A stretch of DNA of 64,000 nt, taken from NCBI GenBank assembly GCA_020027215.1, contig JAHRAO010000003.1, positions 10,718 to 74,717 of the forward strand. Direction: 5' to 3'. How positions within the stretch are numbered: position 1 is the first letter of the stretch; the number at the start of each line of letters is the position of its first letter. This DNA comes from Gammaproteobacteria bacterium (GTDB taxonomy: Bacteria > Pseudomonadota > Gammaproteobacteria > JABABF01 > JAHRAO01). This document shows, piece by piece, positions 1 through 61,000 of this stretch. The translations under genes were made by a program, and so were the position numbers. Under the pieces are notes generated by a model. That model did not search any database. It was given only the letters and a program-made list of their open reading frames with translations, and was not told the origin of the DNA.

Positions 1-1
1 A

Positions 2-178
2 GCACTGGGCATAGGCCGTGGGGGCTCGATCAGTGCACCCTACATTGGTGCGATTGGGCTGACAGCAGCCTGGGGTGCGCATGGCTTCTTTTTCATCGCT
101 GCTGTGGCACCGGTGGTTTGTTTTATTGGATTGCTTTTATTAATGCTCTTTCTAAAACAAAATGCAATAAGTCGTTAG
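2..178 (+). CDS. 3' fragment (C-terminal ~58 aa) of an MFS transporter, AAHS-like. The gene starts upstream of the window.
   Basis: Frame 2 reads ALGIGRGGSISAPYIGAIGL...FLKQNAISR* with no stop until 176-178. The GIGRGG(A/S)xxxP motif matches the last TM region of the PcaK-like transporter at 5487-6803 (VIGIGRGGAMLSPILAGYL). Confidence 0.45.
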   Translation, partial: ALGIGRGGSISAPYIGAIGLTAAWGAHGFFFIAAVAPVVCFIGLLLLMLFLKQNAISR

Positions 179-233
179 ATTGACAGACTGATGACCGCCA
201 TATTTGTGAACAGAAAGTGGAATCATTCATGCA

Positions 234-1031
234 ATGGGATTGTACGATTTAAGTAAAAAAACTATCGCCATCACCGGTGTTGCCTCGGGAATTGGCAGGG
301 AAATTGCCGCTCAACTAAAAGGGTATGGATGCCACACTATCGGTTTAGATATCAAAAAAACCGATGAATATGTTGATACATTTATTCCGCTGGATCTCAG
401 TAAACCGCAATCAATCATTGATGCTGCTGCGGCAATAACAGCACCATTAGATGGACTGTGTAATAATGCTGGCCTCCCACCTCGCCCTGGTTTAGAAACA
501 ACTATCTTGCAAGTGAATTATCTGGGGGCAAAACAATTTACAACTGCCCTATTACCCCAAATGCATGAAGGAGCATCTATAGTGAATATGGCTTCTCGCG
601 CAGGACAAGGATGGCGTAATGCGATCGCACAGATTAAGGCCTTGTCCCTCGTTGACCATCATAACGCGCTCAAAACTCTCATTGACCAAGAAAAGATTGA
701 TGCAACGCGTGCCTATAATTTATCTAAAGAAGCCATCATTGTTTGGACGATGGTGGAAACCGAAGCATTACTCAAAAGCAATATTCGGATAAATTCAGTA
801 AGCCCTAGTGCCGTAGCAACGGGTATTTTGGATGATTTTGCCCAGGCTTTTGGCGATAAAATGGCTTCCAATGTCAAGCGGTCAGGACGCCCTGCCCAAC
901 CGCAAGAAATAGCTCGCGTTGTATGTTTTCTCTTATCCAATCAAAGTGCATGGATTAAAGGCACCGACATCCAGGTGGACGGTGGAATGGGCGCTTTTGC
1001 CTTTGTAGACCAAGTGTGGATGGCTTCCTAG
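234..1031 (+). CDS. short-chain dehydrogenase/reductase (SDR) family oxidoreductase
   Basis: N-terminal Rossmann motif TGVASGIGREIA, catalytic YNLSKEA (YxxxK), and a size typical of the family (265 aa). Confidence 0.8.
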   Translation: MGLYDLSKKTIAITGVASGIGREIAAQLKGYGCHTIGLDIKKTDEYVDTFIPLDLSKPQSIIDAAAAITAPLDGLCNNAGLPPRPGLETTILQVNYLGAKQFTTALLPQMHEGASIVNMASRAGQGWRNAIAQIKALSLVDHHNALKTLIDQEKIDATRAYNLSKEAIIVWTMVETEALLKSNIRINSVSPSAVATGILDDFAQAFGDKMASNVKRSGRPAQPQEIARVVCFLLSNQSAWIKGTDIQVDGGMGAFAFVDQVWMAS

Positions 1032-1034
1032 CGG

Positions 1035-1660
1035 GCTGTTTTAGCGCTCAATACGTCCCTGTTTTAGCGCTCAATACGTCCCTGTATTTCGCTTGTACAT
1101 TGGGTAAAAAACTTCGCAAGACAAGTAATGCTCGTTTTTTACCCAATGGGGCGGTGTTCCCTGCACCGCTTTCTTTGCGGGCGGTGCTTTCTTACCGCTC
1201 CCGGCGGTGCATCCTACGCCGCTTTCTTTACGCTCGGTGCGTTGCTGTATTAGCGCTCAATACGTCCCTGTATTTCGCTTGGTACATTGCCGAAAAATTA
1301 TCGCAAGACAAGTAATCCTCCATTTTTCGGCAATGAGCGGTGCATCCTGCACCGCTGTCTCTACGCTCAATACGTTGCTTTTTTTGCGCTCAATACGTTG
1401 CTGTATTAGCGCTCAATACGTCCCTGTATTTCGCTTGTACATTGGGTAAAAAACTTCGCAAGACAAGTAATGCTCGTTTTTTACCCAATGGGCGCTGTTC
1501 CCCACAGCGCTGTTTTAGCGCTCAATACGTCCCTGTATTTCGCTTGATGCATTGGCAAAAAAGTGTCGCAAGACAAGTAATGCTCGTTTTTTACCCAATG
1601 GGCGCTGTTCCCCACAGCGTTGTCTTAGCCCTCAATACTTCCCTGTATAATGAGTGACTA
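1035..1660. repeat. Tandem array of about 4.5 copies of a ~110-150 bp structured repeat. Each unit has a 35-nt direct-repeat motif GTTTTAGCGCTCAATACGTCCCTGTATTTCGCTTG, hairpin A (12-13 bp stem, conserved loop TCGCAAGACAAGTAAT(G/C)CTC) and hairpin B (GC stem with a TTCCC loop).
   Basis: Hairpin A copies lie at 1098-1149, 1287-1335, 1441-1490 and 1547-1600, with hairpin B about 1 nt downstream of each. The stems differ between copies but stay complementary (TTGGGTAAAAAAC/GTTTTTTACCCAA versus TTGCCGAAAAAT/ATTTTTCGGCAA), while the loop is identical. The ORF-track ORFs at 1016-1657 are translations of the repeats. Confidence 0.8.
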
Positions 1661-1690: not shown

Positions 1691-2884
1691 TTATTTATCA
1701 TTGGATGATAAAAAGTCATAATAGGTTGAGTGGGGATGAAAGCTCGCCCATGCCCGAATAAATTGTTGATAGATTTGCACGCCACGCAATTGAGTGCCTT
1801 GTAGTTGTCCCTCTATACAATAGCCAAAAATATTCCACGTAGAACGCGTATTAGTGTCGGTCAGTTGATCGCCATTAATTTCAAATTGTAATATGGCGGC
1901 GTCTATAGCCCTGTCATAGGCAAATGGAGATGAGCCATCTTCTGAACTGATTAAAAGCAGGTGATTATCGCCCACAGCGTCCATAACCATTCTCCTTTTT
2001 TTGAGCGCATCCCAATCATAAGCTTTGCTATGGCCGTTGATCTCTAACCCAATAACTAATGGCGGTGTTTTCTGTCGGTGCCATCTGGGCAGACTGGCTT
2101 GATAATTCATTAAACTGGTTAGAAAATCATACTTTTTTTGATATTGCGGATGATATTGTAGAATTTCGGAATCGGGGTACTGCGCTAACCAGTGCGCCAA
2201 TGTCATTTGTTCCATCGGTATATCTTTTAACTCGATTCCACTGAATGGCCCATTGACCGCCTCACCGGTTTCCTGTCGCCACCACGAACCAGACTGATGA
2301 TCTTGGAATATCGCATTGTAAGTAATAGCGCCTACTAAGGTAAATTCCAATGCTTGCCCATCAATGCATCGATCGTAAACGCGCCCACTGCGACATAAAC
2401 CACAATAGGTCACCCAAATCGGTTGACTGCCAATGGTGTCAGAAAGTTGATGATGATAAAACAGCATGCTGACTGGATAAGATTTCTGTACGCCATCACG
2501 ATTTAGCCCGATGACTTGCACAGATTGCGGGATTTCATTTTGTGCAGCCCTTGCAAAAGTCGGGTTGTTTAATGGAGCGAATTTGTATTTACCGATCCAA
2601 AAAAGATTAAACAACCAGTAGATCGATGCCCAGATCGTTGTAAAAATGACACTATCAATGATTATAGAAGATTGCGCCGGTAAAGACATTTGCCAGACGA
2701 GTAACAGTAAAACTGCCAGCAAAATAATTCGGATATACAAAATATTTTTCCACATAAACCAGGCAAGATTTAATTGCCAAGGATACTTTTGTAATACGGG
2801 AGGGGTGCCATTAGTGCTCAAACCTTTGATGATCTCAGCAAAAATCAAGGCAATAAATACAATATAAAAGTAGATCATAGTCAA
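1691..2884 (-). CDS. membrane protein with two tandem DUF3179-like domains (N-terminal TM helices)
   Basis: The motifs VTYCGLCRSG, WWRQETGEAVNGPFSG and WLAQYPDSEI match the TYCPLCGS / WSQ..GEA..GP / W...YPD signatures of DUF3179. A second, degenerate copy lies in the C-terminal half. Confidence 0.5.
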   Translation of the reverse strand: MTMIYFYIVFIALIFAEIIKGLSTNGTPPVLQKYPWQLNLAWFMWKNILYIRIILLAVLLLLVWQMSLPAQSSIIIDSVIFTTIWASIYWLFNLFWIGKYKFAPLNNPTFARAAQNEIPQSVQVIGLNRDGVQKSYPVSMLFYHHQLSDTIGSQPIWVTYCGLCRSGRVYDRCIDGQALEFTLVGAITYNAIFQDHQSGSWWRQETGEAVNGPFSGIELKDIPMEQMTLAHWLAQYPDSEILQYHPQYQKKYDFLTSLMNYQASLPRWHRQKTPPLVIGLEINGHSKAYDWDALKKRRMVMDAVGDNHLLLISSEDGSSPFAYDRAIDAAILQFEINGDQLTDTNTRSTWNIFGYCIEGQLQGTQLRGVQIYQQFIRAWASFHPHSTYYDFLSSNDK

Positions 2885-3342
2885 AAAATAATAATAGGGG
2901 CTACTACCCTATATTACTGCTACTGGATATCTTAATAGCATACCGCAGACAGCGGAACAGATCATCGGCAATATAAACCGCATTATCAAAAATGCCCGCG
3001 ATACATGCGCGCCCAACAACTGTATTCCACACCATTTACGCCCATACCATAACAGCATCCTTTAATGCAGTCGGCATAGCCTTGTGTACCTAATTTAGCG
3101 CTGACCACCGCCTTGCTTCAAAGGCGCAAACTTCTTGATCTACAAGGTGACTCCATGATAGATTATCTGAGTGGCCACGCCTCAAGCGTGCACAAATGAT
3201 CAATTTTGGGCAAGATTATCGGCAAAGTAACAATCGCAGTGTTTCCAAAGTACCGCACTGGCGTCTATGCTTGTCAAATTGTGGGTGCGCGTGTGATATT
3301 ATACGCATAAGTTTTACTTGTTCTGCATTGGAAGTGAATACA

Positions 3343-4518
3343 TTGAAAACCCAAATCGGCATCATTGGTGGTGGCCCTTCAGGGTTGTTATTATCACAGT
3401 TATTACAGATGAGTGGTATTGAGACCGTCGTTTTAGAGCGATGCTCCAAGGCGCATGTCCTTGCCCGGATTCGGGCAGGCGTGCTGGAGTGCGGAACGGT
3501 CAATTTACTGGAGAAAGCAGGGGCGAGTGCAAATCTTAAGCAGTACAGTGATACTCATTCCAGCGTAGATATCGTTTTTCAAGGTGAAACCTGCAAAGTC
3601 AATTTTAGCGAACTACTAAACGGGGCTAAGGTCACCGTATACGGTCAAACTGAACTGACCAAAGACCTCTATCAGGTGAGAAATAAAGCAGGAGGGGTAA
3701 TTGTGCATCATGCGGATGAAGTGGCCGTACACGCTGTCGATTCGGATACCCCATTTATCACCTATACCCTCAATAACACGCCCTGTCGTTTAGATTGCGA
3801 GTTTATAGTCGGCTGCGATGGTTTTCATGGTCCCAGCCGTCAGGCAATACCCGACAGTATTAAAACCGAATACGAGCGTAGCTACCCTTTTGGATGGTTG
3901 GGCGTATTATCCGATACACCGCCCGTATCTCCCCATTGCGTCATCTACACTTACCATCAACGTGGATTTGCTTTGTGCTCAATGCGTTCTGCCACGCGCA
4001 GTCGCTACTATATTCAGGTGCCGATCAATGCCGATTTGAACACATGGTCGGATGATCGGTTCTGGCAGGAATTAAAGCGGCGTTTGCCAAAAGATGTATC
4101 TGAACATTTAATAACGGGCCCTTCCATTGAGAAATCTATTACGCCATTGCGCAGTTTTATATGTGAGCCAATGCAGTGGAACAAGTTGTTTTTAGCGGGA
4201 GACGCCGCACATATAGTGCCGCCTACGGGTGCTAAAGGATTAAATCTAGCGGCATCCGATGTTTATTACCTACACCATGCATTTATAAAGTACTATGCAG
4301 ATGGCGATGATTTTGGTTTGATGCATTATTCAGACCAAGCACTCAAACGGGTGTGGAAATCCAGTCGGTTTTCATGGAGTCTCACCCGCCTATTACATGA
4401 TTTTTACGAGGACGATGCATTTATCAATAAGATGAGACTTGCCGAGTTTAATTACTTAAAATCATCGCCCATTGCACAAACTTCATTTGCTGAAAACTAT
4501 GTTGGATTACCTTACTAA
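3343..4518 (+). CDS. pobA: 4-hydroxybenzoate 3-monooxygenase (PobA)
   Basis: Near-colinear identity to PobA as recalled from memory: KTQIGIIGGGPSGLLLSQLL, RIRAGVLE, VYGQTE(L)T(K)DL, DGFHG.SRQ.IP, YPFGWLG.L.DTPPVS, RSATRSRYY.QVP, GPS.EKSI.PLRSF..EPMQ, FLAGDAAHIVPPTGAKGLNLAASDV, NYVGLPY. The start is probably TTG 3343 or GTG 3334, both in frame. The track ORF from 3196 is over-extended. Confidence 0.85.
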   Translation: MKTQIGIIGGGPSGLLLSQLLQMSGIETVVLERCSKAHVLARIRAGVLECGTVNLLEKAGASANLKQYSDTHSSVDIVFQGETCKVNFSELLNGAKVTVYGQTELTKDLYQVRNKAGGVIVHHADEVAVHAVDSDTPFITYTLNNTPCRLDCEFIVGCDGFHGPSRQAIPDSIKTEYERSYPFGWLGVLSDTPPVSPHCVIYTYHQRGFALCSMRSATRSRYYIQVPINADLNTWSDDRFWQELKRRLPKDVSEHLITGPSIEKSITPLRSFICEPMQWNKLFLAGDAAHIVPPTGAKGLNLAASDVYYLHHAFIKYYADGDDFGLMHYSDQALKRVWKSSRFSWSLTRLLHDFYEDDAFINKMRLAEFNYLKSSPIAQTSFAENYVGLPY

Positions 4519-5441
4519 TGAAAATATTACATATTGTGGATAAAAAAATTGTGTTACCCGCATTAATCTTATTGCTCTGGATGAGTTTTACAGGCGCACA
4601 GGCAGAAACCAAACTGATTATGTTGGGCACCGGCACACCTGTTCCTAATGCCGAGCGCGCTGGCCAAGGGATTGCCATCATTTATAACGGCAAAGCCTAT
4701 CTGTTTGATGTCGGCGGTGGTGTCGTCAAACGGTGTATACAGGCATGGAAACAAATGGGCTTTAAGTCTCTCAACCCTACAAAAATATCACATTTATTTA
4801 TCACACACTTACATAGCGATCATGTATTGGATTACCCAGAATTCGCTAATACTTACTGGTGGCGCCGCACCTCGCAAATCAATGTGTATGGTCCGGTGGG
4901 CATTGAAAAAATGGCCTGGGGGTATTACCAGATGATCCGATTCAGTATTCGCCACAGAATAGAAGGCAAGCAACCAGTCAAGAATCCAACTTTTTATCAA
5001 ACTATCCAGCACGAATATAAAAAAGGCGGGTGGACTTTTAATAAGAATGGAATCAAGATTGAAGCCTTTGAAGTGGCGCATGGCGATCTGCACCCCGCTT
5101 TTGGATATAAAATACAAACCCCAGATAAAACCATCGTCATTTCAGGCGATACGATGAAAAGTGAAAAAGTCATAGAAATGGCCACCGGTGCCGATATCTT
5201 AGTACATGAAGTGATCAGCGAAGATGGGATATCACGCATATCCCCTTTTTGGCAAAAATATCATTCCAGCTATCATACCCGTACTCCCGAGCTCGCGGAG
5301 ATCGCCAACAAGGCAAAACCGAAGCTCCTGATATTAACCCATGTCTTGCATTACACAGCCCCCGTTGAATCAGCGTTGCACGAAATTAAAAAACTGTACA
5401 AGGGCAAAGTGGTTCTGGCCAATGACTTAGATGTATTTTAA
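4518..5441 (+). CDS. secreted MBL-fold metallo-hydrolase
   Basis: Signal peptide (LPALILLLWMSFTGAQA) followed by the ITHLHSDHV HxHxDH metal-binding motif. Confidence 0.65.
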   Translation: MKILHIVDKKIVLPALILLLWMSFTGAQAETKLIMLGTGTPVPNAERAGQGIAIIYNGKAYLFDVGGGVVKRCIQAWKQMGFKSLNPTKISHLFITHLHSDHVLDYPEFANTYWWRRTSQINVYGPVGIEKMAWGYYQMIRFSIRHRIEGKQPVKNPTFYQTIQHEYKKGGWTFNKNGIKIEAFEVAHGDLHPAFGYKIQTPDKTIVISGDTMKSEKVIEMATGADILVHEVISEDGISRISPFWQKYHSSYHTRTPELAEIANKAKPKLLILTHVLHYTAPVESALHEIKKLYKGKVVLANDLDVF

Positions 5442-5486
5442 GCCAGCGAGCATGGATAGTTAAATTATCGCCACAAGAGCACAACA

Positions 5487-6780
5487 ATGAATGATCCATG
5501 GAAAATAATTGACACTACACCGATGAGTGTAGTGCAGATATTCGCAGTCAGTATGTGTATCGCACTATTAGCATTAGACGGGTTTGATGTATTATCTATC
5601 GCTTTTGCCGCACCCGGCATCACCGCAGAATGGGGTATTAATCGCGCTGAACTCGGGATTGTGTTATCCATGGAGTTAATCGGTATGGCGGTAGGTGCTA
5701 TGATATTAGGTTATGTCGCCGACCAAATTGGGCGCCGACCAACCATTATGGCGTGCCTCGTTGTAGTCGCTACCGGTATGTTTTTTGCCGCCGGCACTAG
5801 TGGTATGATAGAGTTATCTATTCATCGTTTTTATACTGGGCTGGGCATTGGTGGAATCTTAGCGACCACTAATGCGATGACCGCGGAATTTTCTAATCGG
5901 CGTAATCGCGACATGTGCGTTATTCTGATGGCAGCCGGCTATCCTGTTGGCGTGATAATCGGCGGATCGATCGCTTCGTATTTATTGATTGACTATAGCT
6001 GGCGCGCCATTTTTTATTTTGGCGCAGCGGTCACCACTGCTGCCTTGCCATTAACATGGATTGCCCTCCCCGAATCAATCGCATTTCTCAATAATAAGCG
6101 TCGCCCTGATGCCTTGCAACAAATTAACGCCACCCTAAGCCGTATGGGGAAACAAACCATAGAAGCCCTCCCAGAAATTACGGCAAAAGTCCAGACCAGC
6201 GTAGCAGAATTATTCCGTCCACAATTGCTCACCACTACAGTGGTACTGACTACAGCTTACTTTATGCACTTTATGACTCTTTATTTTCTGTTCAAATGGA
6301 CGCCAAAGATTGTCGTAGATATGGGTTTTGCCCCTTCCTTAGCGGGCACTGTCTTGGTATGGGTGAATATCGGAGGCCTAATGGGTAGTGTATTGCTTAG
6401 CCTGCTGTCGCGTTATTACCCTGTAAGAACCATGCTACTAGGTGTTATGGCGGTATCTTTCGTGATGGTGGTCATTTTCGGTATGGGGTATGACAACTTA
6501 CACCAGCTATCATTGGTCGCCGCCGCCACCGGTTTTTTTGTCAATGCGGGGGTGGTCGGCCTTTATGCCTTATTGGCAAAATCTTTTCCTGCTAATGTCC
6601 GTGCCGGTGGCTCTGGTTTTGTCATCGGCATCGGTCGTGGAGGCGCCATGTTGAGCCCCATTTTAGCCGGCTATCTATTTTATAGTGGCTATAGTTTGCA
6701 AACTGTCGCGTTTTTGATGGGGATGGGTTCCCTATTAGCAGGAATCGCACTTATTTTTCTTCGCAATAAAAAAGAGCTGT

Positions 6781-6803
<23 letters not shown>
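5487..6803 (+). CDS. pcaK: MFS transporter of the aromatic acid:H+ symporter family, a PcaK-like 4-hydroxybenzoate/protocatechuate transporter
   Basis: Twelve-TM MFS architecture with a GRRP loop motif, positioned between pobA and ligAB. Confidence 0.65.
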
Positions 6804-8986
<2,183 letters not shown>

Positions 8987-8989
8987 AGC

Positions 8990-9376
8990 ATGCCGCATCC
9001 TCCGATGATTGCACGTAGTATTGACGGTCATCAGGTCTCGGCGATTGGTCTCGGATGTATGGGATTCAGTCACGCTTACGGTCATCCGCCGCACGAAACA
9101 GAGGCTATTAGGGTGATTCACGCTGCGATTGATCAGGGGGTCACTCCCAGTCAACTGGCCTTAGCCTGGCTCCTCCATCAGGGTGAGCATATATTACCGA
9201 TACCCGGTACCACTAACGCTCACCATTTAGCGGAAAATATTGCCGCCGCACCGCTATCACTATCTGATGAACAGATTCAGCGTATAAATGCCTGCATTAA
9301 TCAGCACACAGTGAGTGGCATGCGCTATACACCCTCTGTTCAAGCCGATATAGACACAGAGGAATTTGTTCCATGA
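8990..9376 (+). pseudogene. aldo/keto reductase remnant carrying the N- and C-terminal motifs but missing about 200 central residues
   Basis: The N-terminus GLGCMGFSHAYG...EAIRVIHAAIDQG (AKR beta1/alpha1) is fused directly to a C-terminal-type segment, LALAWLL....ILPIPGTTNAHHLAENI. The catalytic core is absent. Confidence 0.5.
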
Positions 9377-9474
9377 GCCACCGTTCTATAATGCCAAATC
9401 GGCACATTAAAAAATGAGGTGGTCAGTATGTTAATTAATGAATCAAATGCTATTCAGCGAATGGGTACGGCGCC

Positions 9475-10377
9475 ATGAGCCAATTTATTAAAGATGTAGA
9501 TTGGTTAGATTGGCATCCCAATCCAGTCAAGCCTGATTTTCTAGTGCCTGAAGGGGCGGTGGATGCCCATTGCCATATTTTTGGTCCTGGCGATCAATTT
9601 CCCTTTGCGCCCCAACGCAAATACACGCCCTGTGATGCGAGTGCGGCGCAATTGTGGGCACTGCGCGATTATTTGGGATTTTCGCGCAGTGTAATTGTAC
9701 AGGCAACCTGCCATGGCACAGACAACAGTGCGATGGTGCATGCCTTACAACATTTAGGCAATACGGCGCGCGGCGTGGCCACAGTAAAAACCAATGTGAG
9801 CAACCAAGAATTAGAAGCACTACACGCTGCGGGCGTACGTGGGGTCCGCTTTAATTTTGTTAAGCGATTAGTTAATGTGCTCCCTTTTGATGATTTAATG
9901 TCCATTGTAGAAAAGATCCACAAATACAACTGGCATACCGTCATTTACTTTGAAGCACAGGACCTAACCGCTTACCGCGATTTTTTTACCGCATTGCCCA
10001 CCATTGTAGTGGTCGATCATATGGGCAGGCCTGATGTAACACAGGATGCGAGAGGTAAAGCTTTTGAGCCCTTTATCCAACTATTAGAAGAAAACAGTAA
10101 TTTCTGGTGTAAAGTGAGTGGTGCCGAACGCTTATCGGTCATTGGACCTCCTATATATGATGACTTTGTGCCCTTTGCCCGTAAAGTCGTTAAAAGATTC
10201 CCCGACCGCGTGCTATGGGGTACGGACTGGCCACATCCCAATATGAAATCCCATATGCCCGATGACGGCGAATTGGTCAATTTGATCCCGCGCATTGCGC
10301 CAACCCCATCACTACAACACCAGTTATTGGTTGATAATCCAAGTCGTCTGTACTGGGACGAGTCACCCTCACACTAA
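9475..10377 (+). CDS. ligI: 2-pyrone-4,6-dicarboxylate lactonase (LigI), amidohydrolase-2 family
   Basis: AVDAHCHIFGP near the N-terminus, WGTDWPHP near the C-terminus, a size of about 300 aa, and a position in the lig cluster. Confidence 0.75.
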   Translation: MSQFIKDVDWLDWHPNPVKPDFLVPEGAVDAHCHIFGPGDQFPFAPQRKYTPCDASAAQLWALRDYLGFSRSVIVQATCHGTDNSAMVHALQHLGNTARGVATVKTNVSNQELEALHAAGVRGVRFNFVKRLVNVLPFDDLMSIVEKIHKYNWHTVIYFEAQDLTAYRDFFTALPTIVVVDHMGRPDVTQDARGKAFEPFIQLLEENSNFWCKVSGAERLSVIGPPIYDDFVPFARKVVKRFPDRVLWGTDWPHPNMKSHMPDDGELVNLIPRIAPTPSLQHQLLVDNPSRLYWDESPSH

Positions 10378-10412
10378 CCGCAATCTATAATTCACTATAA
10401 TAAAAATGCACC

Positions 10413-11429
10413 ATGATTATTGACTGTCACGGACACTTTACCACCACACCGCCCGGAGTCGGTGAATGGCGCAACATACAGAAAAAAGCTGTCGCAGCTG
10501 ATCCAGATTTTGTCGGTGAGAAAGGCGTGATGCAAGTCAGCGACGACGAGTTGAGAGAAAGTATAGAAACTAATCAATTAAAGTTACAACGCGAGCGAGG
10601 CACTGATTTGACTATCTTTTCCCCACGAGCAAGCTGGATGGCCCATCATATTGGCAATGAACATACCAGCCGTTTCTGGAGCGAACATCAAAACGAATTA
10701 ATACGGCGCGTGTGTGATTTGTTCCCCCAAAACTTTGCGCCGGTGGCACAGTTACCGCAATCGCCTGGCGTAGATCCTTGTAAAAGTATTCCTGAAATGG
10801 TGCGTTGCGTAGAAGAAATGGGTTTTATCGGCGTCAACTTAAATCCAGACCCCTCTGGTGGTTTTTGGACGGCCCCACGTCTTGACGATAAATCCTGGTA
10901 TCCCTTCTACGAAAAAATGCAGGATCTCTCCATACCCGCGATGATTCATGTCAGTGCCGCTTGCAATGACTGTTTTCATACCACCGGTTCGCATTATCTC
11001 GGGGCAGATACCACTGCCTTTGACCAATTGATGTATTCTAATTTATTTGACTCTTTTCCCGAACTTAAACTGATCATTCCGCATGGCGGCGGTGCGGTTC
11101 CCTATCATTGGGGGCGGTTTAGAGGAATCGCTCAGGATAAAGGTTTAGGCGATATCAATGAAGTGATGCTAAAAAATGTTTTTTTTGATACTTGTGTCTA
11201 TCATCAACGGGGGATGGATCTCCTTTTGGATATTATTCCGGTAGATAATATTTTATTCGCATCGGAAATGATCGGGGCGGTGCGGGGAATAGACCCAGAA
11301 TCGGGGCATTATTTTGATGATACCAAACGCTATATTGACGCCAATCCCTGTCTAGCCACCGAAGATCGCTATAAGATTTTTGAAGGGAATGCGCGGAAAG
11401 TTTATAGCCGTCTCAAAATAGATTGGTGA
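10413..11429 (+). CDS. ligJ: 4-oxalomesaconate hydratase (LigJ)
   Basis: MIIDCHGH.TT.P, NHGTD....SPR, GF.G..LNPDP, WYP.YEK..DL..PA.IH, V.HGGGA.PY..GRF and FE.NARKV follow LigJ closely. Confidence 0.85.
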   Translation: MIIDCHGHFTTTPPGVGEWRNIQKKAVAADPDFVGEKGVMQVSDDELRESIETNQLKLQRERGTDLTIFSPRASWMAHHIGNEHTSRFWSEHQNELIRRVCDLFPQNFAPVAQLPQSPGVDPCKSIPEMVRCVEEMGFIGVNLNPDPSGGFWTAPRLDDKSWYPFYEKMQDLSIPAMIHVSAACNDCFHTTGSHYLGADTTAFDQLMYSNLFDSFPELKLIIPHGGGAVPYHWGRFRGIAQDKGLGDINEVMLKNVFFDTCVYHQRGMDLLLDIIPVDNILFASEMIGAVRGIDPESGHYFDDTKRYIDANPCLATEDRYKIFEGNARKVYSRLKIDW

Positions 11430-11439
11430 CGTTACGCCT

Positions 11440-12540
11440 ATGAGCCAGCACGCAGTGAGTTATATGCAGATACGCGGCGGCAGTTCCAAGGGGCTGTACT
11501 TCAATGCCAACGATATCCCCTCTGTACCAATTGAGCGAGATGCTTTTTTAGTCGCGGCAATGGGTAAAGGCAGCAGTCAGATAGATGGCCTTGGCGGCGG
11601 TCATCCATTGACCAGTAAGGCCGCCATAGTTTCACCTTCCACTCGCCATGATGCCGATATTGATTATCTATTTTGTCAGGTGGTCGTCGCTGAAGACCGA
11701 GTAGATACCAAACCTAATTGCGGAAATATACTTGCCGGCACAGGCGTATTTGCACTTGAATCGGGGATGATAAAAGCACAAGACAGTGAAACGCGTTTGA
11801 CCGTGCATATGGTCAACAGTAGCAAACTCTGTGAATTGGTCATCCCAACCCCCAACGGTAAAATAAATTATGCGGGCGATGCAAAAATTGCGGGCGTGCC
11901 GGGGAGTGCGGCACCCATCATCTGTAACTACAAAGATATAGCAGGGTCAGCCTGTGGTGCATTACTGCCGACTGGCCGTCCGCTCGATATTGTCGACGGC
12001 ATTGAAGTTACATGTATTGATAATGGTATGCCTGTGGTGGTGATGCGTGCTGCAGATATGGGCATTACCGGTTATGAAAATCCAGCAGACCTCAATGATA
12101 ACGAGGCACTAAAAGAGCGGTTACAGGCGATGCGCTTGCAATTGGGGCCCTTGATGCATTTAGGTGATGTTGACGGCGCCGCCGTGCCCAAAATGTGTAT
12201 GATATCGCCACCACAGCATGGAGGCTTGGTCAATACGCGCACTTTCATCCCCTATAAATGCCATGAATCAATCGGCGTATTGGGTGCCGTATCGGTCGCG
12301 ACTGCCTGTTTGCTCCCTAGGGGTGTTGCCAATACAGTCACACCATTTTCTGCTGGCTCGCAGCGCACACAAGCGATCACTGTGTCTATTGAACATCCCA
12401 GCGGCGAATTTTCTTGTGTATTAGATCTGTTTATAGAGCAGAACCACATTAAAATCAACAGTGCGGGATTGATGCGTACCGCGCGTTTATTAAGCCGCGG
12501 ACAATTATATATTCCCGATGAAATGATAACAAGTAGGTGA
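11440..12540 (+). CDS. PrpF-family isomerase, a 4-oxalomesaconate tautomerase (GalD/LigU-like)
   Basis: About 360 aa with a PrpF/AcnD-accessory-like diaminopimelate-epimerase fold signature (MRGGSSKG..., two CxN-type half sites). It sits between ligJ and ligK. Confidence 0.65.
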   Translation: MSQHAVSYMQIRGGSSKGLYFNANDIPSVPIERDAFLVAAMGKGSSQIDGLGGGHPLTSKAAIVSPSTRHDADIDYLFCQVVVAEDRVDTKPNCGNILAGTGVFALESGMIKAQDSETRLTVHMVNSSKLCELVIPTPNGKINYAGDAKIAGVPGSAAPIICNYKDIAGSACGALLPTGRPLDIVDGIEVTCIDNGMPVVVMRAADMGITGYENPADLNDNEALKERLQAMRLQLGPLMHLGDVDGAAVPKMCMISPPQHGGLVNTRTFIPYKCHESIGVLGAVSVATACLLPRGVANTVTPFSAGSQRTQAITVSIEHPSGEFSCVLDLFIEQNHIKINSAGLMRTARLLSRGQLYIPDEMITSR

Positions 12541-12543
12541 AAA

Positions 12544-13257
12544 ATGAAGACAGTGGCCATAAAGAATATTGCACGTGTTAACGTCACAGTAGCAGAAGCA
12601 CTCGGTGCACTGGGCGTGGCGACCGTACACGAGGCGGCGGGAAGAGTAGGCTACCTTAAACCCTATATGCGCCCTATATACCCACATGCCCGAATCGGCG
12701 GTAGTGCAATCACCGTATTGGCACAACCGGGAGACAATTGGATGATTCATGTGGCGATTGAATTATGTCACCCTGGCGACATTTTAGTGGTGGCCTGTAC
12801 CAGCGACAGTACTGACGGGTTTTTTGGCGATCTTCTAGCCACTTCGGCAAAAGCGCGAGGCGTCAAGGGGTTGGTGATTGACGCCGGCGTGCGCGATATC
12901 AGAGATTTGCAGAAGATGGATTTTCCTGTTTGGTCAAAGGCGGTGTCCGCCAAAGGGACGGTCAAAAACACATTGGGTGCAGTCAATGTCCCTGTGGTCT
13001 GTGCGGGGCAGCTCGTCAATCCAGGTGACGCTATTATTGCCGACGATGACGGAGTGGTGGCGATTGAACGCCACCGGGCAAAGCAGGTTTTGAGTGCGGG
13101 ACAAGCGAGAGCCACCCAAGAAGCACAAAAACGCGCACAATTACAATCGGGAATATCGGGGATAGATTTATACAATATGCGCCCGCGACTTGAGGAGAGC
13201 GGTTTCAAATATTTAGATTCGCTGGCAGATTTAGACGACCGCACAGACGACACCTAA
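12544..13257 (+). CDS. ligK: 4-carboxy-4-hydroxy-2-oxoadipate aldolase/oxaloacetate decarboxylase (LigK), RraA-like family
   Basis: RraA/MenG-like fold (GD.LV....S...[20 protein letters not shown]), a size of about 230 aa, and its position as the terminal gene of the lig operon. Confidence 0.75.
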
Positions 13258-13424
13258 GCTAGGATAAAGGGTATGCACAACTGTGCGAATGGTCATTAAA
13301 ACCATACGGCAACAAAAACATCATCTACCTAAAAATGATGGTATAGTATTGTGAGCCTTATCCAAACTTAGGCTTTTTAGTAATGTATGTGCCATTGTTT
13401 TTAGTATGAGGGAAGATTTACAAA

Positions 13425-15851
13425 ATGAATACCATATTTAACTCTGCTGCATTAGCCATCATTAGTGCCTCACTGCTATTGCCTGCAGTGAGTTTCGCCG
13501 AATTAGAGGAAATCATCGTCACCGCACAAAAACGACAGGAATCTCTGCAAGATGTGCCCATTGCGGTCACCGCCTTTACCGCAGATACACTGAATGCGTT
13601 AGGAGTCAATGATGTCACCGATGTGGTTAAATTCACCCCGGGACTAACCCTGAGCCAGCAAAATGGATCCAACAGAAATTACTTTCTGCGCGGTGTCGGC
13701 ACCTTTGATTTTCACCTCACCGCTGCATCAGCTGTAGGGCAGTATTTCGATGGTATCACTTTAACCAGCGGTTTTCACGCCCGGTCGGCGCTTTTTGACA
13801 TGGAGCGGGTGGAAGTATTAAAAGGACCACAAAATACGCTTTTTGGCCTGAATACGACTGGCGGCGCCGTAAATTATATCTCCAGAAAGCCAGAGATCGG
13901 TGACGGCTTAAACGGAGCGGTCAGCGGCAAGCTCGGCAATGATAGTCATTTGGGCATTGATGTCGCGATCGGATTTGACAATGGCAAAAATCTCGCCGGT
14001 CGCATCGCAGTCCATACCAATAGACATGATGGACCCTATGAAGCCATTTCAGATGGGCAAAAATTTGGTGCAGATAATTTAGTGGCCTATCGCGCAACAT
14101 TGTTGTGGCAACCTACCGATGCCACCAAAATCACTTTCAATATGCACGGATCATCCAACGACAATGATGGCGCTGCCGTGCGCGCAGTGGGCACACGGAC
14201 GATCGATAACAATGCTATAACAGCAACCAATACTTATGGCTTGGTACTCTGTTCGGCACTGCAAAACACCCCCATTGATTATGGCCAAATGACTAATTGC
14301 GTCAGCCGCGGCAACCGTCTAAATGGCCAGGCGCCAGTGAATCCCTCCACTAATGATTGGAAGCGCGTGACACAAGATTTAGGTTTTGAAGATCTATATA
14401 CTTTAGGGTATTACCTAAAGGTAGATCATGCATTTGATTTTGCCACTCTCAACTTGAGTCTCGCCATGGATAATCTTGAAGTGCAAACAGCACTGGATGG
14501 AGACGGGGGGCCGACAGCCTTACTTAACCTTCAACAAGAAGATGATCGCGATACGCAGCAATACGAAATCCGCTTGATCTCGCTCGATGATGCAGCATTT
14601 CGTTGGATTGCAGGAATCTATTATTTAGATGATACGTCCGATTCATATACGGGGGTCAATTCACCCGGATTTCCTGGACCGCCCGTATCACGCGGCATCA
14701 GAGTGGCGAATATACAGCTGGATACTGTAAAAACCAATTTAGGGGTATACGCCCAGGGTGAGGTTGATTTTAGTGATGCGCTGACCCTGACAGTGGGGTT
14801 GCGCTCGTCTGATGAAGAAATTATTGGCGATTACCTGCCGTCTGCTCCTGTTGCGACGAGCACACAGCTCGCTGCGCCTATATTTTCCGATACTATTGCG
14901 ACATTGGTGCGCCAACAATTCGCGGGGCAAACAGGATTTGACGCAAATGGCTATGAAATTGCACGCAAAGTGCGGCGAGTGCTCGACAACAATGATATCG
15001 GCTATACCATCAAGCTTGATTATAAAATGTCTGAAGACTCTTTGCTCTATTTTAGCGTATCCAAAGGATTTAAGGGCGGGGCTATAGACACCCGCGCCGC
15101 CTATGCATTAGTACCCGTGGCCAATGTCCAAACCAGTTTGGACGCAGCACAAATAGATCCCGAATCGCTTGACGCCTATGAAATTGGTTACAAAAGCGCG
15201 TTTGGCGAGAATATAAATCTGGATGTCGCAGTATTTCAGTATACCTATCAAAATCTACAACAATTTATTACACCTGGGGGCATTCCATCGCTGGATAATG
15301 CACCTGAATCTGAAATCACGGGATTAGATGGCAATTTGAGATACGCCACTGACCGTGGATTCTACCTTGATTTGGGATGGTCTTTCCTCAATTCAGAAGT
15401 GACCGATGGCGGAAATAGTCCTAATTTCTTTGCGGGGGCAGAGTTATCCAATGCACCGGATATGAGTTTATCTTTATTAGCCTCGCAGGAGATTTCATTG
15501 AGCGGCAATTTGCTGACTTTAACCGGCGGTATCAGCCATACGGGCGATCAGCTCCGCCGGACATTAGTTAACGGCAGTAATCAAATAGGCAATCTCCTCA
15601 CCGAACCTGCACATACTATAGTAAATACCAATGTGGCCTATCGTTTTGGGGAAGATCAAAAATATAACCTCGCATTTTTTATTGATAATGTACTGGATGA
15701 AAATTTTTGTGGGGGTCGGGTCGTAAACGACTCAAATGGCGTCCTCGCCAGTAATTTTAATCATCGGGCTTTAAGCTATAATGCGGTATGCCGTACATCC
15801 CGCGCCGCAACACGAACTTTAGGCGTATCTTTTAATTTAGCGCTGTTTTAG
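13425..15851 (+). CDS. TonB-dependent outer-membrane receptor
   Basis: Signal peptide, plug-domain TonB box region EEIIVTAQKRQESLQDVPIAVTAF, a size of about 800 aa, and a C-terminal ...FNLALF with terminal Phe. Confidence 0.85.
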   Translation: MNTIFNSAALAIISASLLLPAVSFAELEEIIVTAQKRQESLQDVPIAVTAFTADTLNALGVNDVTDVVKFTPGLTLSQQNGSNRNYFLRGVGTFDFHLTAASAVGQYFDGITLTSGFHARSALFDMERVEVLKGPQNTLFGLNTTGGAVNYISRKPEIGDGLNGAVSGKLGNDSHLGIDVAIGFDNGKNLAGRIAVHTNRHDGPYEAISDGQKFGADNLVAYRATLLWQPTDATKITFNMHGSSNDNDGAAVRAVGTRTIDNNAITATNTYGLVLCSALQNTPIDYGQMTNCVSRGNRLNGQAPVNPSTNDWKRVTQDLGFEDLYTLGYYLKVDHAFDFATLNLSLAMDNLEVQTALDGDGGPTALLNLQQEDDRDTQQYEIRLISLDDAAFRWIAGIYYLDDTSDSYTGVNSPGFPGPPVSRGIRVANIQLDTVKTNLGVYAQGEVDFSDALTLTVGLRSSDEEIIGDYLPSAPVATSTQLAAPIFSDTIATLVRQQFAGQTGFDANGYEIARKVRRVLDNNDIGYTIKLDYKMSEDSLLYFSVSKGFKGGAIDTRAAYALVPVANVQTSLDAAQIDPESLDAYEIGYKSAFGENINLDVAVFQYTYQNLQQFITPGGIPSLDNAPESEITGLDGNLRYATDRGFYLDLGWSFLNSEVTDGGNSPNFFAGAELSNAPDMSLSLLASQEISLSGNLLTLTGGISHTGDQLRRTLVNGSNQIGNLLTEPAHTIVNTNVAYRFGEDQKYNLAFFIDNVLDENFCGGRVVNDSNGVLASNFNHRALSYNAVCRTSRAATRTLGVSFNLALF

Positions 15852-16060
15852 CTGGGGGCTGTTTTGCGCTCGGGGCGTCCGTGCACCTCGCTTATTACGC
15901 CAGCCCAAAATTATCGCAAGACAAGTAATGCTCCATCTTGGGCTGGCGGGCGCTGTTCCCGACAGCGCTGACTGACTTTGCGTTCGGTATGTCTGTATAC
16001 CGAGATTGATGCATGGTCAACGCACCCAGCGTTGCTGTTTTAGCGCCCAAAAACATTTAT
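15852..16060. repeat. solo copy of the same structured repeat family (hairpin A at 15901-15953, hairpin B at 15949-15971, a third hairpin at 15986-16006, and terminal GCTGTTTTAGCGCC)
   Basis: The loop TATCGCAAGACAAGTAATGCTCCA is conserved and flanked by a new complementary stem, GCCAGCCCAAAAT/ATCTTGGGCTGGC. The element begins inside the TonB receptor stop codon (gcgctgttttag). Confidence 0.7.
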
Positions 16061-16115
16061 AATAAGCAAATGTGCCTGAGTATAGCAATTTATCCTTTTT
16101 TGATATGGCTGCTGC

Positions 16116-52936: not shown

Positions 52937-53078
52937 AATGGATTGGATTGTGCCATGCTCCTGCCCTCCATAGGGTGGCGCGAAACTGAAGGATGCATGC
53001 GGAACAATGGATGTGAAATGGATGTAAACAATGGACAACATAACGGATAATCGTAAAAGGAATAACAAAGGCAGGCGA

Positions 53079-53648
53079 ATGCTCTCCCACGCATTTTTAC
53101 CTGTCATCCTACACATACTCCCCGCGACTTTATACGCCAATTTCGAAATTGGATTAGGGGCTTATCGTGCGAGTAGTCTTGTGGGCTCTTCTGCTATTGT
53201 GTGGGCACCCGCACACTTATCGTATCACTGGCACCATCGGCGAGATGGACGACAACGGATTCATTGGGCTTTTATGCAGGCGCCGATCAGCGGACAAATA
53301 CAGCGGGCGCGATTGAAATATCAGTCCCTCAGTTGGCATTGGGAAAAAAAGTGGCGTCTCTCTTCACAGTTTAAGCCCTGGTGGTCATTGGGTATTGCCT
53401 ATGTGCGCGAATCACTGACCCATCGCTATGCAACAGACCGAGAAGGTTTCCTAGTCCAAGGATTGCCATCCATTCACCAGCAGGGTTTAGCGACCATTAC
53501 TGGCATCAATTTCGCATGGCACTACCGACAACAACATTTACTCTCTCTTGGAACACATTATTATTTCCCGCTTTACAAAGGGGCAGAAATTATAAGCATA
53601 CAGTTTATGTACGGTTACTTATGGGGACGACAAATACCGTCTGAATAA
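53079..53648 (+). CDS. small outer-membrane beta-barrel protein (putative, about 170 aa mature), the first gene of the T4SS-containing transcription unit
   Basis: Signal peptide MLSHAFLPVILHILPATLYA|NF, then about 8 amphipathic alternating stretches (FEIGLGAY, LKYQSLSWHWE, WSLGIAYVRE, ATITGINFAWHY, LSLGTHYYF, ISIQFMYGYLW). The track ORF from 53031 is over-extended. Confidence 0.35.
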   Translation: MLSHAFLPVILHILPATLYANFEIGLGAYRASSLVGSSAIVWAPAHLSYHWHHRRDGRQRIHWAFMQAPISGQIQRARLKYQSLSWHWEKKWRLSSQFKPWWSLGIAYVRESLTHRYATDREGFLVQGLPSIHQQGLATITGINFAWHYRQQHLLSLGTHYYFPLYKGAEIISIQFMYGYLWGRQIPSE

Positions 53649-53694
53649 CAACAAAATGTCTATTCGCAATGATGCGTCATAAAGGAGGATATCC

Positions 53695-54009
53695 ATGTCT
53701 ATAGTGCGTTTATTTGTGGTGAGTTTTTTACTCACCGTTCATTTGGCAGCATTCGCCAATAACTCTGCAGTGCAGCTCCCTTCATGGGGACAGCAAAGTG
53801 ACATTCAATCGACCTTATCCAGTAAAGGTGAGCAAATCGCCAATATTATCAGTTCAGTCGTCGCTATCTTATCCATATTAGGGATGTTAATCGGAGCGGC
53901 AATGTTTTCAGTCAGTCGCACCGATGATGGAAAAAAATGGATATTGGGGAGTGTATGCGGGTTGATTGTTGCGGGATCGGTCTACGGCATAGTGGGGCTC
54001 TTTATCTAA
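53695..54009 (+). CDS. virB2: T4SS pilin subunit VirB2/TrbC-like
   Basis: 104 aa, a long signal peptide (LLTVHLAAFA|NN), then two hydrophobic helices separated by a short loop (IISSVVAILSILGMLIGAAMF...WILGSVCGLIVAGSVYGIVGLFI). Strong RBS AAGGAGGA. It is the first gene of a B2-B3-B4 string. Confidence 0.5.
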   Translation: MSIVRLFVVSFLLTVHLAAFANNSAVQLPSWGQQSDIQSTLSSKGEQIANIISSVVAILSILGMLIGAAMFSVSRTDDGKKWILGSVCGLIVAGSVYGIVGLFI

Positions 54010-54287
54010 TGGCTGCCTTCAACGGACGATTTGTCATCAAGCGCTGGTTCGGTGTGCCGGCGCATGCCCTCGGGAGCGGGGTCATTGCTCTCCCTATCGC
54101 CATTATCGCCCTGCTCACCCAGATATGGTTATTGAAAGCATTTTGTATATTGATTGCGCTGATATGTATCGCCATCGGCATCGTCATTTTTATCATGGGT
54201 GCAGAGTGGCAATTTATTTCCATCATATTGGCATCTCGGCGAGAAAGAACCCAAATCACCGCGGATGGTATGGAGTGGGGATCATGA
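54009..54287 (+). CDS. virB3: T4SS VirB3/TrbD-like inner-membrane protein
   Basis: 92 aa with one or two TM helices. The start overlaps the virB2 stop (TAATG) and the stop overlaps the virB4 start (ATGA). Position is between the pilin and the VirB4 ATPase. Confidence 0.45.
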   Translation: MAAFNGRFVIKRWFGVPAHALGSGVIALPIAIIALLTQIWLLKAFCILIALICIAIGIVIFIMGAEWQFISIILASRRERTQITADGMEWGS

Positions 54288-56644: not shown

Positions 56645-57288
56645 AATTACGACTCTATTTATTAATGCTGTGTTTAGCCCCCTCTCTAGCTTACAGCTAT
56701 GCAAGTGCACTCAATGATATCAAAATCATTGCTGAATTGCAGATGATTTACAAGCAAATTACCGAAACAATAGAACAAATACAGCAGCAAAAAGAAATTA
56801 TCCACCGGATGCAACAAACCATTGAAAGCGCTGAGCAAGATATGAATACCATTCGCAATACAAAATTGGAGGCATTGTTACACAATCCGGTGCGCAACAA
56901 ATATCGTTTGAACTCATTAGAACAAATAAGTAATTACCTCAATCAAGTCAAAGCACAAAGACAAAAATCTCCAGCGAATAGTAAAGAAAATGCTGTCTAT
57001 CAGCGTATAGAAGCACAACTCACCTCTCTGACTCAGCGCCATGAAATACTGAACTTATTAGATGAAAGCGTTGAAGATAACCTGCACACCGCAAACACAG
57101 ATGTATCTGAACGCCATAGTGCGCAAATTATGGCGCAATCGCTCAGTATAGTGGCGCAAATTGAAATTAAGCGAGAGAAAAGAGCGTTAGCACAAGAAAA
57201 AACTAACGCCGTCTCTGCCGAAATGGAATACAAAGTCGTAGAAATGCAGAGTGAGTTAGGTGAGTTAATTAAAAGGAGCGGTTGGTAG
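56641..57288 (+). CDS. VirB5/TrbJ-like secreted alpha-helical minor pilus/adhesin protein (putative)
   Basis: Signal peptide LYLLMLCLAPSLAYSYA, about 195 aa mature, and predicted all-helical/coiled coil. ATGA overlap with virB4. Position is between B4 and B6. Confidence 0.4.
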   Translation: MKLRLYLLMLCLAPSLAYSYASALNDIKIIAELQMIYKQITETIEQIQQQKEIIHRMQQTIESAEQDMNTIRNTKLEALLHNPVRNKYRLNSLEQISNYLNQVKAQRQKSPANSKENAVYQRIEAQLTSLTQRHEILNLLDESVEDNLHTANTDVSERHSAQIMAQSLSIVAQIEIKREKRALAQEKTNAVSAEMEYKVVEMQSELGELIKRSGW

Positions 57289-57289
57289 T

Positions 57290-58423: not shown

Positions 58424-58425
58424 TA

Positions 58426-59106
58426 ATGACTCCCGACCGCCCAGATACCTCATCAGATGTGCATACTGCACAATGGAATCCTTTAGCGCGTCGTTTTGCC
58501 CGCTCACCACAAATGATGGTTTTGCGTTTAGCGCGCTACGCATTGCTCGGTTGGGTACTCTTTTTTATTGTGCTCATTACTTTTGTGTTGCACGCCATGA
58601 TCGCCACACTACGCCCAGTCCCTGTTATTGCGGTGAATGAACGCGGCGAAGTTATCGGTGAATTTGAGTATCTCAACAATGCAATGCGCACCGATGAAGA
58701 GGTAATTGCCGCCTCTATGTATTTCGTAGAACGCTATTTATCTTTGAATAGTGCATCTATTTATGATGATTACGCCATAGCGCTGTCCATGATGTCACCC
58801 GCTATGCAAGAAAAAACGCTGGATGAAATTAAAGCCACCGGGTATCTCAAACGCATTGCCAACTCGGCAATACATAGCCATATTGAATATCATGCACCAC
58901 CGACACTCTTGCAACGTAAAGGTGCGGAAGTCATGGTGCATTTAATAGGAAACATGGTCGTCATCGGTACAACGCAGCAAGACGGCGAACAAACAAAAAA
59001 GGCTTTTGATATGACCCTACTAGCCGAAATGGTGCCACGCACCATTAGACAAACTCAAGGAATACACATATTAGACATCCGTCAAACTCAAGGGAACACG
59101 GAATGA
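58426..59106 (+). CDS. virB8: VirB8/TrbF-like bitopic protein
   Basis: 226 aa: a cytoplasmic N-terminus, a single TM (LLGWVLFFIVLITFVLHAMIA), and a periplasmic NTF2-like-sized domain. Starts 3 nt after the virB6 stop. Confidence 0.5.
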   Translation: MTPDRPDTSSDVHTAQWNPLARRFARSPQMMVLRLARYALLGWVLFFIVLITFVLHAMIATLRPVPVIAVNERGEVIGEFEYLNNAMRTDEEVIAASMYFVERYLSLNSASIYDDYAIALSMMSPAMQEKTLDEIKATGYLKRIANSAIHSHIEYHAPPTLLQRKGAEVMVHLIGNMVVIGTTQQDGEQTKKAFDMTLLAEMVPRTIRQTQGIHILDIRQTQGNTE

Positions 59107-60925: not shown

Positions 60926-61000
60926 CGATACCCTATTCATTGCTTGAGAAAGCAAGGAGGCAGCGATACATGGTAGTGAAAACATTTATAATAATCATTA

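Follow-up and report, generated by a model that had tools for sequence, protein, structure and literature searches.

What kind of element keeps a series of hairpins intact while their sequence changes, and does it do so as DNA or as RNA? The question is raised by a tandem array at positions 1035-1660 of a 64,000-nucleotide stretch (the window) of contig JAHRAO010000003.1, assembly GCA_020027215.1, from an uncultured, deep-branching gammaproteobacterium. In a preliminary description of the window, a small RNA (sRNA) family, a hairpin recognised by an IS200/IS605-type transposase and a protein-binding module were named as candidates. Here, the repeat was found to carry three hairpins which change their stems and keep their loops, and to stand at the 3' ends of co-oriented genes. 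From these properties we tentatively prefer to read it as a modular RNA cassette in the 3' untranslated ends of mRNAs, which would be neither an independent gene nor a classical transposon. The repeat is most likely a previously undescribed, lineage-specific family of the structured intergenic repeat kind.

Layout of the repeat units

The span 1035-1660 holds four head-to-tail units (u1 to u4) and a truncated tail, and fills the gap that separates a short-chain dehydrogenase gene (234-1031, +) from a convergent DUF3179 gene (1691-2884, -). One more copy is located at 15840-16048, directly 3' of a TonB-dependent receptor gene (13425-15851, +). In the direction of the upstream gene, the module is about 108 nt long and begins with a U-rich start containing TAG, followed by three hairpins: H0, of 5+3 bp with the loop GUCCCU; hairpin A, of 13-15 bp and closed on an A-run/U-run, which shows the 20-nt loop UCGCAAGACAAGUAAU(G/C)CUC; and hairpin B, GC-rich, of 7-9 bp with a C-rich loop, which adjoins the U-rich beginning of the following module. 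The second unit of the distant locus was revealed by a covariance model made from the units. With Tandem Repeats Finder, 1221-1648 was resolved into periods of 110 and 155 nt, and a sub-repeat of 23 nt was called at 1036-1085 and at 1364-1430. The units measured 110-186 nt, which agrees with the lower end of the ~110-150 bp estimated earlier and exceeds the upper end. Over 116 nt u1 and u3 are 96% identical, and each is a mosaic of the other. The features are as follows.

1029-1031, +: TAG stop of the short-chain dehydrogenase gene 234-1031 (open reading frame (ORF) list, Pfam adh_short), followed by CGG and then by the first repeat motif
1035-1057, +: extra leading 23-nt sub-repeat GCTGTTTTAGCGCTCAATACGTCC, comprising the U-rich start and the 5' half of H0 (Tandem Repeats Finder, motif search, covariance-model match)
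1058-1243, +: unit u1, 186 nt; H0 1067-1092, hairpin A 1098-1148, loop motif 1114-1133
1151-1169, 1179-1200 and 1203-1223, +: three B-type hairpins of u1, with TTTCTT after each
1236-1251, +: H0-like GGTGC/GTATT of u1, from the sequence
1244-1399, +: unit u2, 156 nt; H0 1253-1278, hairpin A 1285-1335 with the second stem variant, loop 1301-1320
1336-1356, +: hairpin B of u2, AGCGGTGCA/TGCACCGCT
1357-1399, +: two additional 23-nt sub-repeats of u2
1400-1508, +: unit u3, the canonical 109-nt unit; H0 1409-1434, hairpin A 1440-1490, loop 1456-1475
1492-1510, +: hairpin B of u3, GCGCTGT TCCCC ACAGCGC, then TGTTTTAG
1509-1618, +: unit u4; H0 1518-1543, hairpin A 1550-1600, loop 1566-1585, hairpin B 1602-1620
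1619-1657, +: truncated terminal motif GTTGTCTTAGCCCTCAATACTTCCCTGTATAATGAGTGA, where homology stops after CCCTGTAT
15840-15852, +: partial motif GCGCTGTTTTAGC, encoding the last codons of the receptor (A-L-F) and its TAG stop at 15849-15851
15857-15974, +: distant unit 1; H0 15866-15891 (GGGGC/GCACC), hairpin A 15898-15948 with the third stem variant; covariance-model score 124.6 bits
15914-15933 and 15950-15968, +: loop and hairpin B, respectively, of distant unit 1
15975-16048, +: distant unit 2, without hairpin A; covariance-model match 15975-16041, E 1e-4
15983-16004, +: H0' of distant unit 2, CGGTAT/ATACCG
16018-16034, +: B' of distant unit 2, CAACGC ACCCA GCGTTG, a terminator-like site
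16034-16048, +: terminal partial motif GCTGTTTTAGCGCCC of distant unit 2

Beyond the loci named in this report, motif and covariance-model searches of the 64 kb found no further copy in the window. The last truncated motif of the array ends in CTGTATAATG, compared with CTGTATTTCG in the internal units, and contains a perfect TATAAT hexamer at 1646-1651. It points into the 3' end of the DUF3179 gene, and could drive an antisense transcript or be due to chance.

Stems, loops and covariation

The loop of hairpin A, TCGCAAGACAAGTAAT[G/C]CTC, is exact in all five copies and occurs on the + strand only in the 64 kb searched; u2 carries the G to C change at position 17. The loop 20-mer TCGCAAGACAAGTAATSCTC had exactly five matches, at 1114, 1301, 1456, 1566 and 15914, and no match was obtained in any of 100 shuffles. 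Around this loop the inner A-run/T-run is kept, and the outer part of the stem is wholly different between variants. Three stems were found that are fully different yet each self-complementary:

u1 and u3: CATTGGGTAAAAAAC / GTTTTTTACCCAATG
u2: CATTGCCGAAAAAT / ATTTTTCGGCAATG
distant copy: CGCCAGCCCAAAAT / ATCTTGGGCTGGCG, with one A·C mismatch

The tandem array, the invariant loop and the covarying stems of hairpin A were thus as first described, confirmed by the exact 20-mer count and the pairing alignment. Compensation on both arms, as claimed then, holds for u1 to u3 and, with the one A·C, for the distant copy; it fails in u4, where the left arm CATTGGCAAAAAAG faces a right arm of the u3 type, with two G·U pairs and an internal loop. 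Hairpin A of u4 is probably a recombinant with its crossover inside the identical 20-nt loop, and its left arm suggests that at least a fourth stem variant exists.

In the alignment of A and B from the five copies, 95.5% of the pair cells were standard pairs and 11 of the 22 pairs were altered on both sides; this evidence comes from only five intact copies, with three to four stem variants that are independent. None of the pairing measures was matched in any of 500 column shuffles, and slid registers were only 37-49% paired. The covariation reported for hairpin B was likewise borne out, with GCGCTGT/ACAGCGC set against GCGGTG(CA)/(TG)CACCGC, and a further stem, CAACGC/GCGTTG, was found in distant unit 2. 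The 35-nt direct-repeat motif noted before is present, but it is not a plain repeat: it contains the third covarying hairpin, H0 (AATAC-GTCCCT-GTATT, extended by GCG/CGC). In the two distant units H0 takes the forms GGGGC/GCACC and CGGTAT/ATACCG, and at 1236-1251 the form GGTGC/GTATT with three G·U pairs. Over ten copies 90% of its cells are paired, and four of the five pairs are altered on both sides. The minimum-energy fold of the units consists of the three hairpins, with z-scores of -5.6, -5.2 and -2.2 relative to shuffles (u3: -5.6).

A comparison of u3 with the distant copy gave the following identities by segment:

5' motif: 25/41
hairpin A, left arm: 6/15
hairpin A, loop: 20/21
hairpin A, right arm: 5/15
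hairpin B: 20/21

As judged from the aligned copies, the conserved features are the loop sequences and the helix geometry, and not the sequence of the stems. Pair counts, shuffles and segment identities agree with the earlier proposal that structure and loop are under constraint, and that the repeat is not one of the miniature inverted-repeat transposable elements with conserved terminal inverted repeats.

The same pattern could in principle arise in a functionless, locally amplified palindromic minisatellite, in which template-switch correction of quasipalindromes keeps the stems and gene conversion keeps the loop and B. All copies lie within ~22 kb, u1 and u3 are mosaics, u4 resembles a recombinant within the loop, and no homologues were found anywhere searched, all of which would suit such an origin. 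Conversion would, however, have to homogenise just the loop and B and leave the arms at 33-40% and the 5' motif at 61% identity, and the distant copy lies 14 kb away. Moreover, palindrome correction in DNA does not produce the helices kept by G·U pairs (H0 at 1236-1251, and B both at 1179-1200 and at 1203-1223), and the anchoring at stop codons and the co-orientation described below are left unexplained. We consider this explanation very unlikely.

Gene ends, orientation and strand

A short-read contig, L003 (run SRR27685851), was retrieved by an exact-protein look-up of the dehydrogenase. It is 100% identical over window positions 1-1064 and reaches 6.3 kb further left, with its position 6309 corresponding to window position 1. 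A profile search of this contig detected two decayed copies on its minus strand, at 3593-3515 and 2033-1926. The former is behind an aldehyde dehydrogenase gene whose TAG stop sits within TCTTAGCGCTCAATAC; its 5' motif is identical at 33 of 35 positions, and the right arm and B are lost. The latter starts 23 nt past the TAA of a metallo-beta-lactamase/alkyl-sulfatase (Lactamase_B) gene, and has a loop identical at 14 of 19 positions, unpaired stems and no remaining B. The joint loss of loop identity and pairing in the decayed copies is as expected if the intact copies are maintained.

Taken together, the four loci in ~70 kb are all co-oriented with the upstream gene and start 0-25 nt from the stop of that gene. 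In three of the four this stop is TAG, in or next to the TTAGCG of the repeat, compared with 11 TAG among the 60 stops of the window (binomial p ~0.02). In the receptor gene the last three residues are themselves encoded by the repeat motif. The anchoring at stop codons and the decayed copies were not part of the preliminary description, and neither was the strand pattern reported below.

At 60917-60997, the sequence GCTTTTAGCGATACCCTATTCATTGCTTGAG behind the TAG of ORF 60008-60925 loosely resembles the 5' motif of the repeat and is followed by a small hairpin. After this hairpin stands the exact 16-mer AAAACATTTATAATAA, which is also found directly 3' of the terminal motif of the distant locus (16050-16065). 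The region, which was left unscored by the profile searches, may be a fifth, very degraded copy, or the two sites may share a 3' end or a promoter-like box (TATAAT).

Stems which are nearly perfect in Watson-Crick pairing and conserved in structure alone would also be expected of a mobile or recombining DNA hairpin, whose single-stranded structure and loop are recognised by an HUH-type enzyme or recombinase encoded elsewhere. REP/RAYT, a PATE derived from IS200/IS605 and a rolling-circle Rep are the candidates, and arrays would form by repeated insertion or rolling-circle read-through. Dispersal to at least four gene ends, with decayed relics included, is as for mobile repeats, and direct repeats of GCTGTTTTAGCGC stand on both sides of the solo locus. 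In addition, in a short-read (k=31) assembly of the same organism, contigs end at 1064 and begin at 16049, at the edges of the repeat, which hints at further copies elsewhere or at polymorphism in length or insertion. These contig ends are not accounted for by k-mers repeated within the window. The argument is weak, and the breaks were downgraded as proof of multicopy status, because the same assembly also breaks in unique sequence (contig L008).

Against mobility at the DNA level, all four loci follow the orientation of the upstream gene and stand on its stop codon, which HUH elements with a replication-strand bias do not predict. No transposase, RAYT, Rep or integrase was detected in the ~70 kb, and neither GTAG, inverted REP pairs nor terminal inverted repeats were present. 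That G·U outnumbers A·C by 11:1 on the sense strand, as detailed below, points to pairing in RNA. A DNA-level mobile hairpin is regarded as rather unlikely, and the REP- or PATE-like element recognised by a Y1 HUH transposase that was proposed at the outset found no support: there is no GTAG or 5' guide tetranucleotide, the copies are direct only, the loop has 20 nt, and no ORF for a Y1 enzyme or RAYT was seen in ~70 kb.

Several observations bear on the strand. A U-rich tract (UGUUUUAG, UUUCUUU) follows hairpin B on the strand of the upstream gene only. Among the non-Watson-Crick positions of the helices, 11 are G·U and one is A·C on the sense strand, where the opposite strand would give 11 C·A; these events are not all independent. 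Hairpin B, with predicted stabilities of -9 to -16 kcal/mol, is more stable on the sense than on the antisense strand in six of eight cases, tied in two and less stable in none. No sigma-70-like promoter was found within 1035-1660, the sole match in 900-1800 being at 1695-1722, outside the array. Only ~15 nt separate the B of one unit from the first hairpin (H0) of the next, and the units are therefore packed too tightly to hold a promoter. The side on which the U-tract lies, the G·U pattern, the stability of B and the absent promoter together favour a sense-strand RNA, and the simplest reading is that the selected form would be a sense RNA made by read-through from the upstream gene.

A multicopy small regulatory or decoy RNA would also be a sense RNA. 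According to this explanation, modules of H0, A and B are freed as ~100-nt RNAs, by a promoter or by 3' processing of the mRNA, and act in trans, with the A loop and the C-rich H0 and B loops pairing with target mRNAs or titrating an RNA-binding protein. The order of parts is typical of an sRNA: a hairpin on the 5' side, a middle one that exposes the conserved sequence, and a last, GC one with a U tail. Tandem multicopy arrangement is known from Listeria LhrC1-5, and here UCCC is found in the loop of H0 (GUCCCU) as well as in loops of B (UUCCCC, UUCCCUG, UCCCG). Fixed loops with variable stems are also the pattern of CsrB-type sponges. None of the units has a sigma-70-like promoter, however, the ~15 nt between them leave no room for one, and the first unit begins on the stop codon of a gene. 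The lack of GGA motifs excludes a CsrA sponge, no antisense match of at least 10 nt was found in the 64 kb, and the element has neither an Rfam family nor conservation outside the host organism. Thus, of the sRNA family put forward earlier, the terminator-like B and the loop-exposed conserved sequence stand, and promoter and spacing speak against it; it is an alternative that we think possible, if unlikely.

If the repeat is instead a 3' untranslated cassette, as we prefer, B with its U-tract would terminate transcription and/or block 3'-to-5' exonucleases, and H0 and A would be structural and recognition hairpins. Through its loop, hairpin A would be recognised by sequence, either by an RNA-binding protein or by an RNA that base-pairs with it, and the upstream message, or a 3' fragment processed from it, would depend on this partner for its fate. 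The protein-binding module suggested before is compatible with this as RNA, and not as a DNA operator. Array length would change by unequal recombination among the 23-nt sub-repeats and identical loops, and copies without function would decay in stems and loop alike. The arms of the hairpin A stems, which were considered as guides or targets, had no matches elsewhere in the window.

A number of points weigh against the cassette. Only five intact A hairpins at two loci are at hand, and the covariation rests on paralogues that may exchange sequence, since no relative is present in any collection; correction of palindromes at the DNA level could also keep perfect Watson-Crick stems. A terminating or stabilising role alone does not need an invariant 20-nt loop, and the window contains no site complementary to the loop over at least 10 nt, only 9-mers at chance level. 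Hairpin A is equally or more stable on the antisense strand in four of four cases, and the mismatch in the distant A stem reads as G·U there. The U-tract of B is weak (4-5 U), and most B copies fail a simple terminator scan. Finally, confinement of the copies to this locus had been named in the preliminary description as a result that would speak against selection on the repeat, and this concern persists: all copies found fall inside ~22 kb, none was seen in the remaining 48 kb of the window, and the element occurs in no other genome of the collections.

A bolder version, to which we attach a low probability, is that the repeat is a self-propagating 3'-end cassette, which lands on or replaces the last codons of genes and brings its own TAG, a terminator hairpin and an address hairpin. 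The latter would recruit a dedicated trans factor both for spread and for post-transcriptional control, making the repeat a mobile "stop-and-tag" module.

The selective value of structured intergenic repeats (REP, BOX, ERIC) is mostly unclear, though they are common. The signature here is unusually clean, with three pair-changing helices, fixed loops, a position at stop codons and a strand asymmetry that points to RNA. If this holds genome-wide, the repeat would be a tractable case for how 3' untranslated modules are read and reach new gene ends, and the case would lie in a gammaproteobacterial lineage without cultured or sequenced close relatives. If the pattern fails genome-wide, what is left is a local, lineage-specific minisatellite of limited interest.

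Known systems, database searches and neighbouring genes

The REP and BIME repeats of Enterobacteria and Pseudomonas are similarly lineage-specific intergenic hairpin repeats, located mostly at gene 3' ends and often clustered, and REPs are transcribed within the upstream mRNA, which they stabilise or in which they attenuate transcription. REPs within ~15 nt of a stop codon reportedly affect translation termination (a finding ascribed to Liang, Rudd and Deutscher, 2015). REPs, however, are GC-rich palindromes of 20-40 nt with a conserved stem, a 5' GTAG and a small variable loop, and BIMEs and REPINs alternate in orientation, whereas the copies here are all direct and head-to-tail on one strand per locus. 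The unit consensus has no GTAG, 9-10 of the 15 positions of the A stems vary from copy to copy, and the loop has 20 nt. No RAYT (Y1 HUH) gene was present among the ~60 ORFs of the window or on L003. The pneumococcal BOX element (boxA-boxB(n)-boxC) is also modular, with one sub-module varying in tandem number, stable predicted RNA folds and no protein. It has no sequence similarity to the repeat, is not anchored at stops, and covarying stems around an invariant loop are not known from it.

LhrC1-5 of Listeria carry UCCC motifs in loop A and in the terminator loop (PMC4132741). They share with the present repeat several near-identical units of ~100 nt, UCCC in loops including that of the terminator, and a loop as the functional part; the terminator-like 3' hairpin and U tail with a conserved loop seed, as in LhrC-like sRNAs, are present in the units. 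The LhrC copies differ in being free-standing genes, each with a LisR-dependent promoter, whereas no promoter is detectable here and the units abut stops and each other; the main conserved loop (UCGCAAGACAAGUAAUGCUC) is, moreover, not CU-rich.

The attC sites of integrons (e.g. the VCRs of Vibrio) are species-specific repeats of ~60-130 nt that lie at or overlap the stop of a co-oriented gene, and their recognition as a folded single strand makes their stems covary. In attC the central part varies, while here the loop is the conserved part, and up to 14 kb of multi-gene stretches in both gene orientations separate the copies. Neither RYYYAAC (R'') nor GTTRRRY (R') was found at the hairpin bases, where the arms read CATTG.../...CAATG and CGCCAG.../...CTGGCG, and the window contains no intI or tyrosine recombinase. 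PATEs derived from IS200/IS605 are likewise non-coding and free of terminal inverted repeats, and their two subterminal hairpins differ from each other. The hairpins of IS200/IS605 are, by contrast, short with small loops and conserved stems; insertion is 3' of a fixed tetra- or pentanucleotide, and the strand bias is that of replication, not of transcription. The left flanks of the present loci share only the T-rich/TAG start of the element, with no TTAC-type flank, and no TnpA is encoded in the window.

Sponges of the CsrB/RsmZ type were not recognised, as GGA is in none of the three loops. ToxI-like type III antitoxins have repeats of 34-45 nt compared with the units of 109-186 nt, and no toxN was found: the downstream genes are the convergent DUF3179 gene at the first locus and a cytidylyltransferase-like gene at the second, not of the toxN/abiQ type. 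Other candidates were discarded. A small ORF in the loop loses its ATG in u2; the consensus of an IHF site, a CsrA site or a Crc/Hfq A-rich motif is not reached by eye; and the resemblance to nut-like boxA/boxB, to a rolling-circle replication (RCR) origin or CRESS-type nonanucleotide, to attC and to ToxI is superficial only.

Database searches returned no relative. The loop 20-mer had two hits in 185,579 species genomes, three in JGI metagenomes and none in IMG/VR, a chance-level count with no flanking hairpin at any hit. The translated repeat (a 105-aa ORF over the open + frames) gave no hits in 5.8 billion proteins, and two against 1.84 billion representatives, both being unrelated repetitive artefacts. 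A blastn search with 1400-1650 against plasmids and phages returned nothing. The Rfam/Infernal scan suggested in the preliminary description matched no family to the repeat: over the whole window tRNA-Met alone passes the gathering threshold, and E-value scans of both loci gave chance-level matches only. The host has no close relatives in collections. Its best non-self HemE match is 58-60% identical, and the window proteins checked are singleton clusters, seen only on one NCBI contig (76,556 bp) and in SRR27685851.

Directly right of the array, window positions 1701-1759 (+) showed a sub-threshold Rfam match to the archaeal C/D-box snoRNA sR30 (30.2 bits against a gathering threshold of 38, E 2e-5), antisense to the 3' end of the DUF3179 gene. 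In a bacterium this match is most likely due to chance.

As for the surrounding genes, window positions 3196-15851 are occupied by a protocatechuate 4,5-cleavage-type cluster followed by the TonB-dependent receptor. The cluster includes an FAD monooxygenase, an MBL-fold hydrolase, an MFS transporter, LigA, LigB and a GFO/IDH/MocA dehydrogenase, together with two amidohydrolase_2 proteins, PrpF and an RraA-like aldolase. Every repeat locus found is in or beside this catabolic neighbourhood, and none is in the housekeeping part (16-64 kb). Within the latter, seven tightly packed ORFs (205, 839, 215, 377, 226, 303 and 305 aa) at 53031-60925 (+) lack a Pfam assignment. Among their products, the one of 839 aa is distantly of the VirB4/TraC ATPase type (NCBIfam E 3e-16, well short of the cut-off) and the one of 226 aa is weakly IcmL/DotI-like. 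As a group, the ORFs resemble a very divergent, type-IV-secretion-like module set among housekeeping genes.

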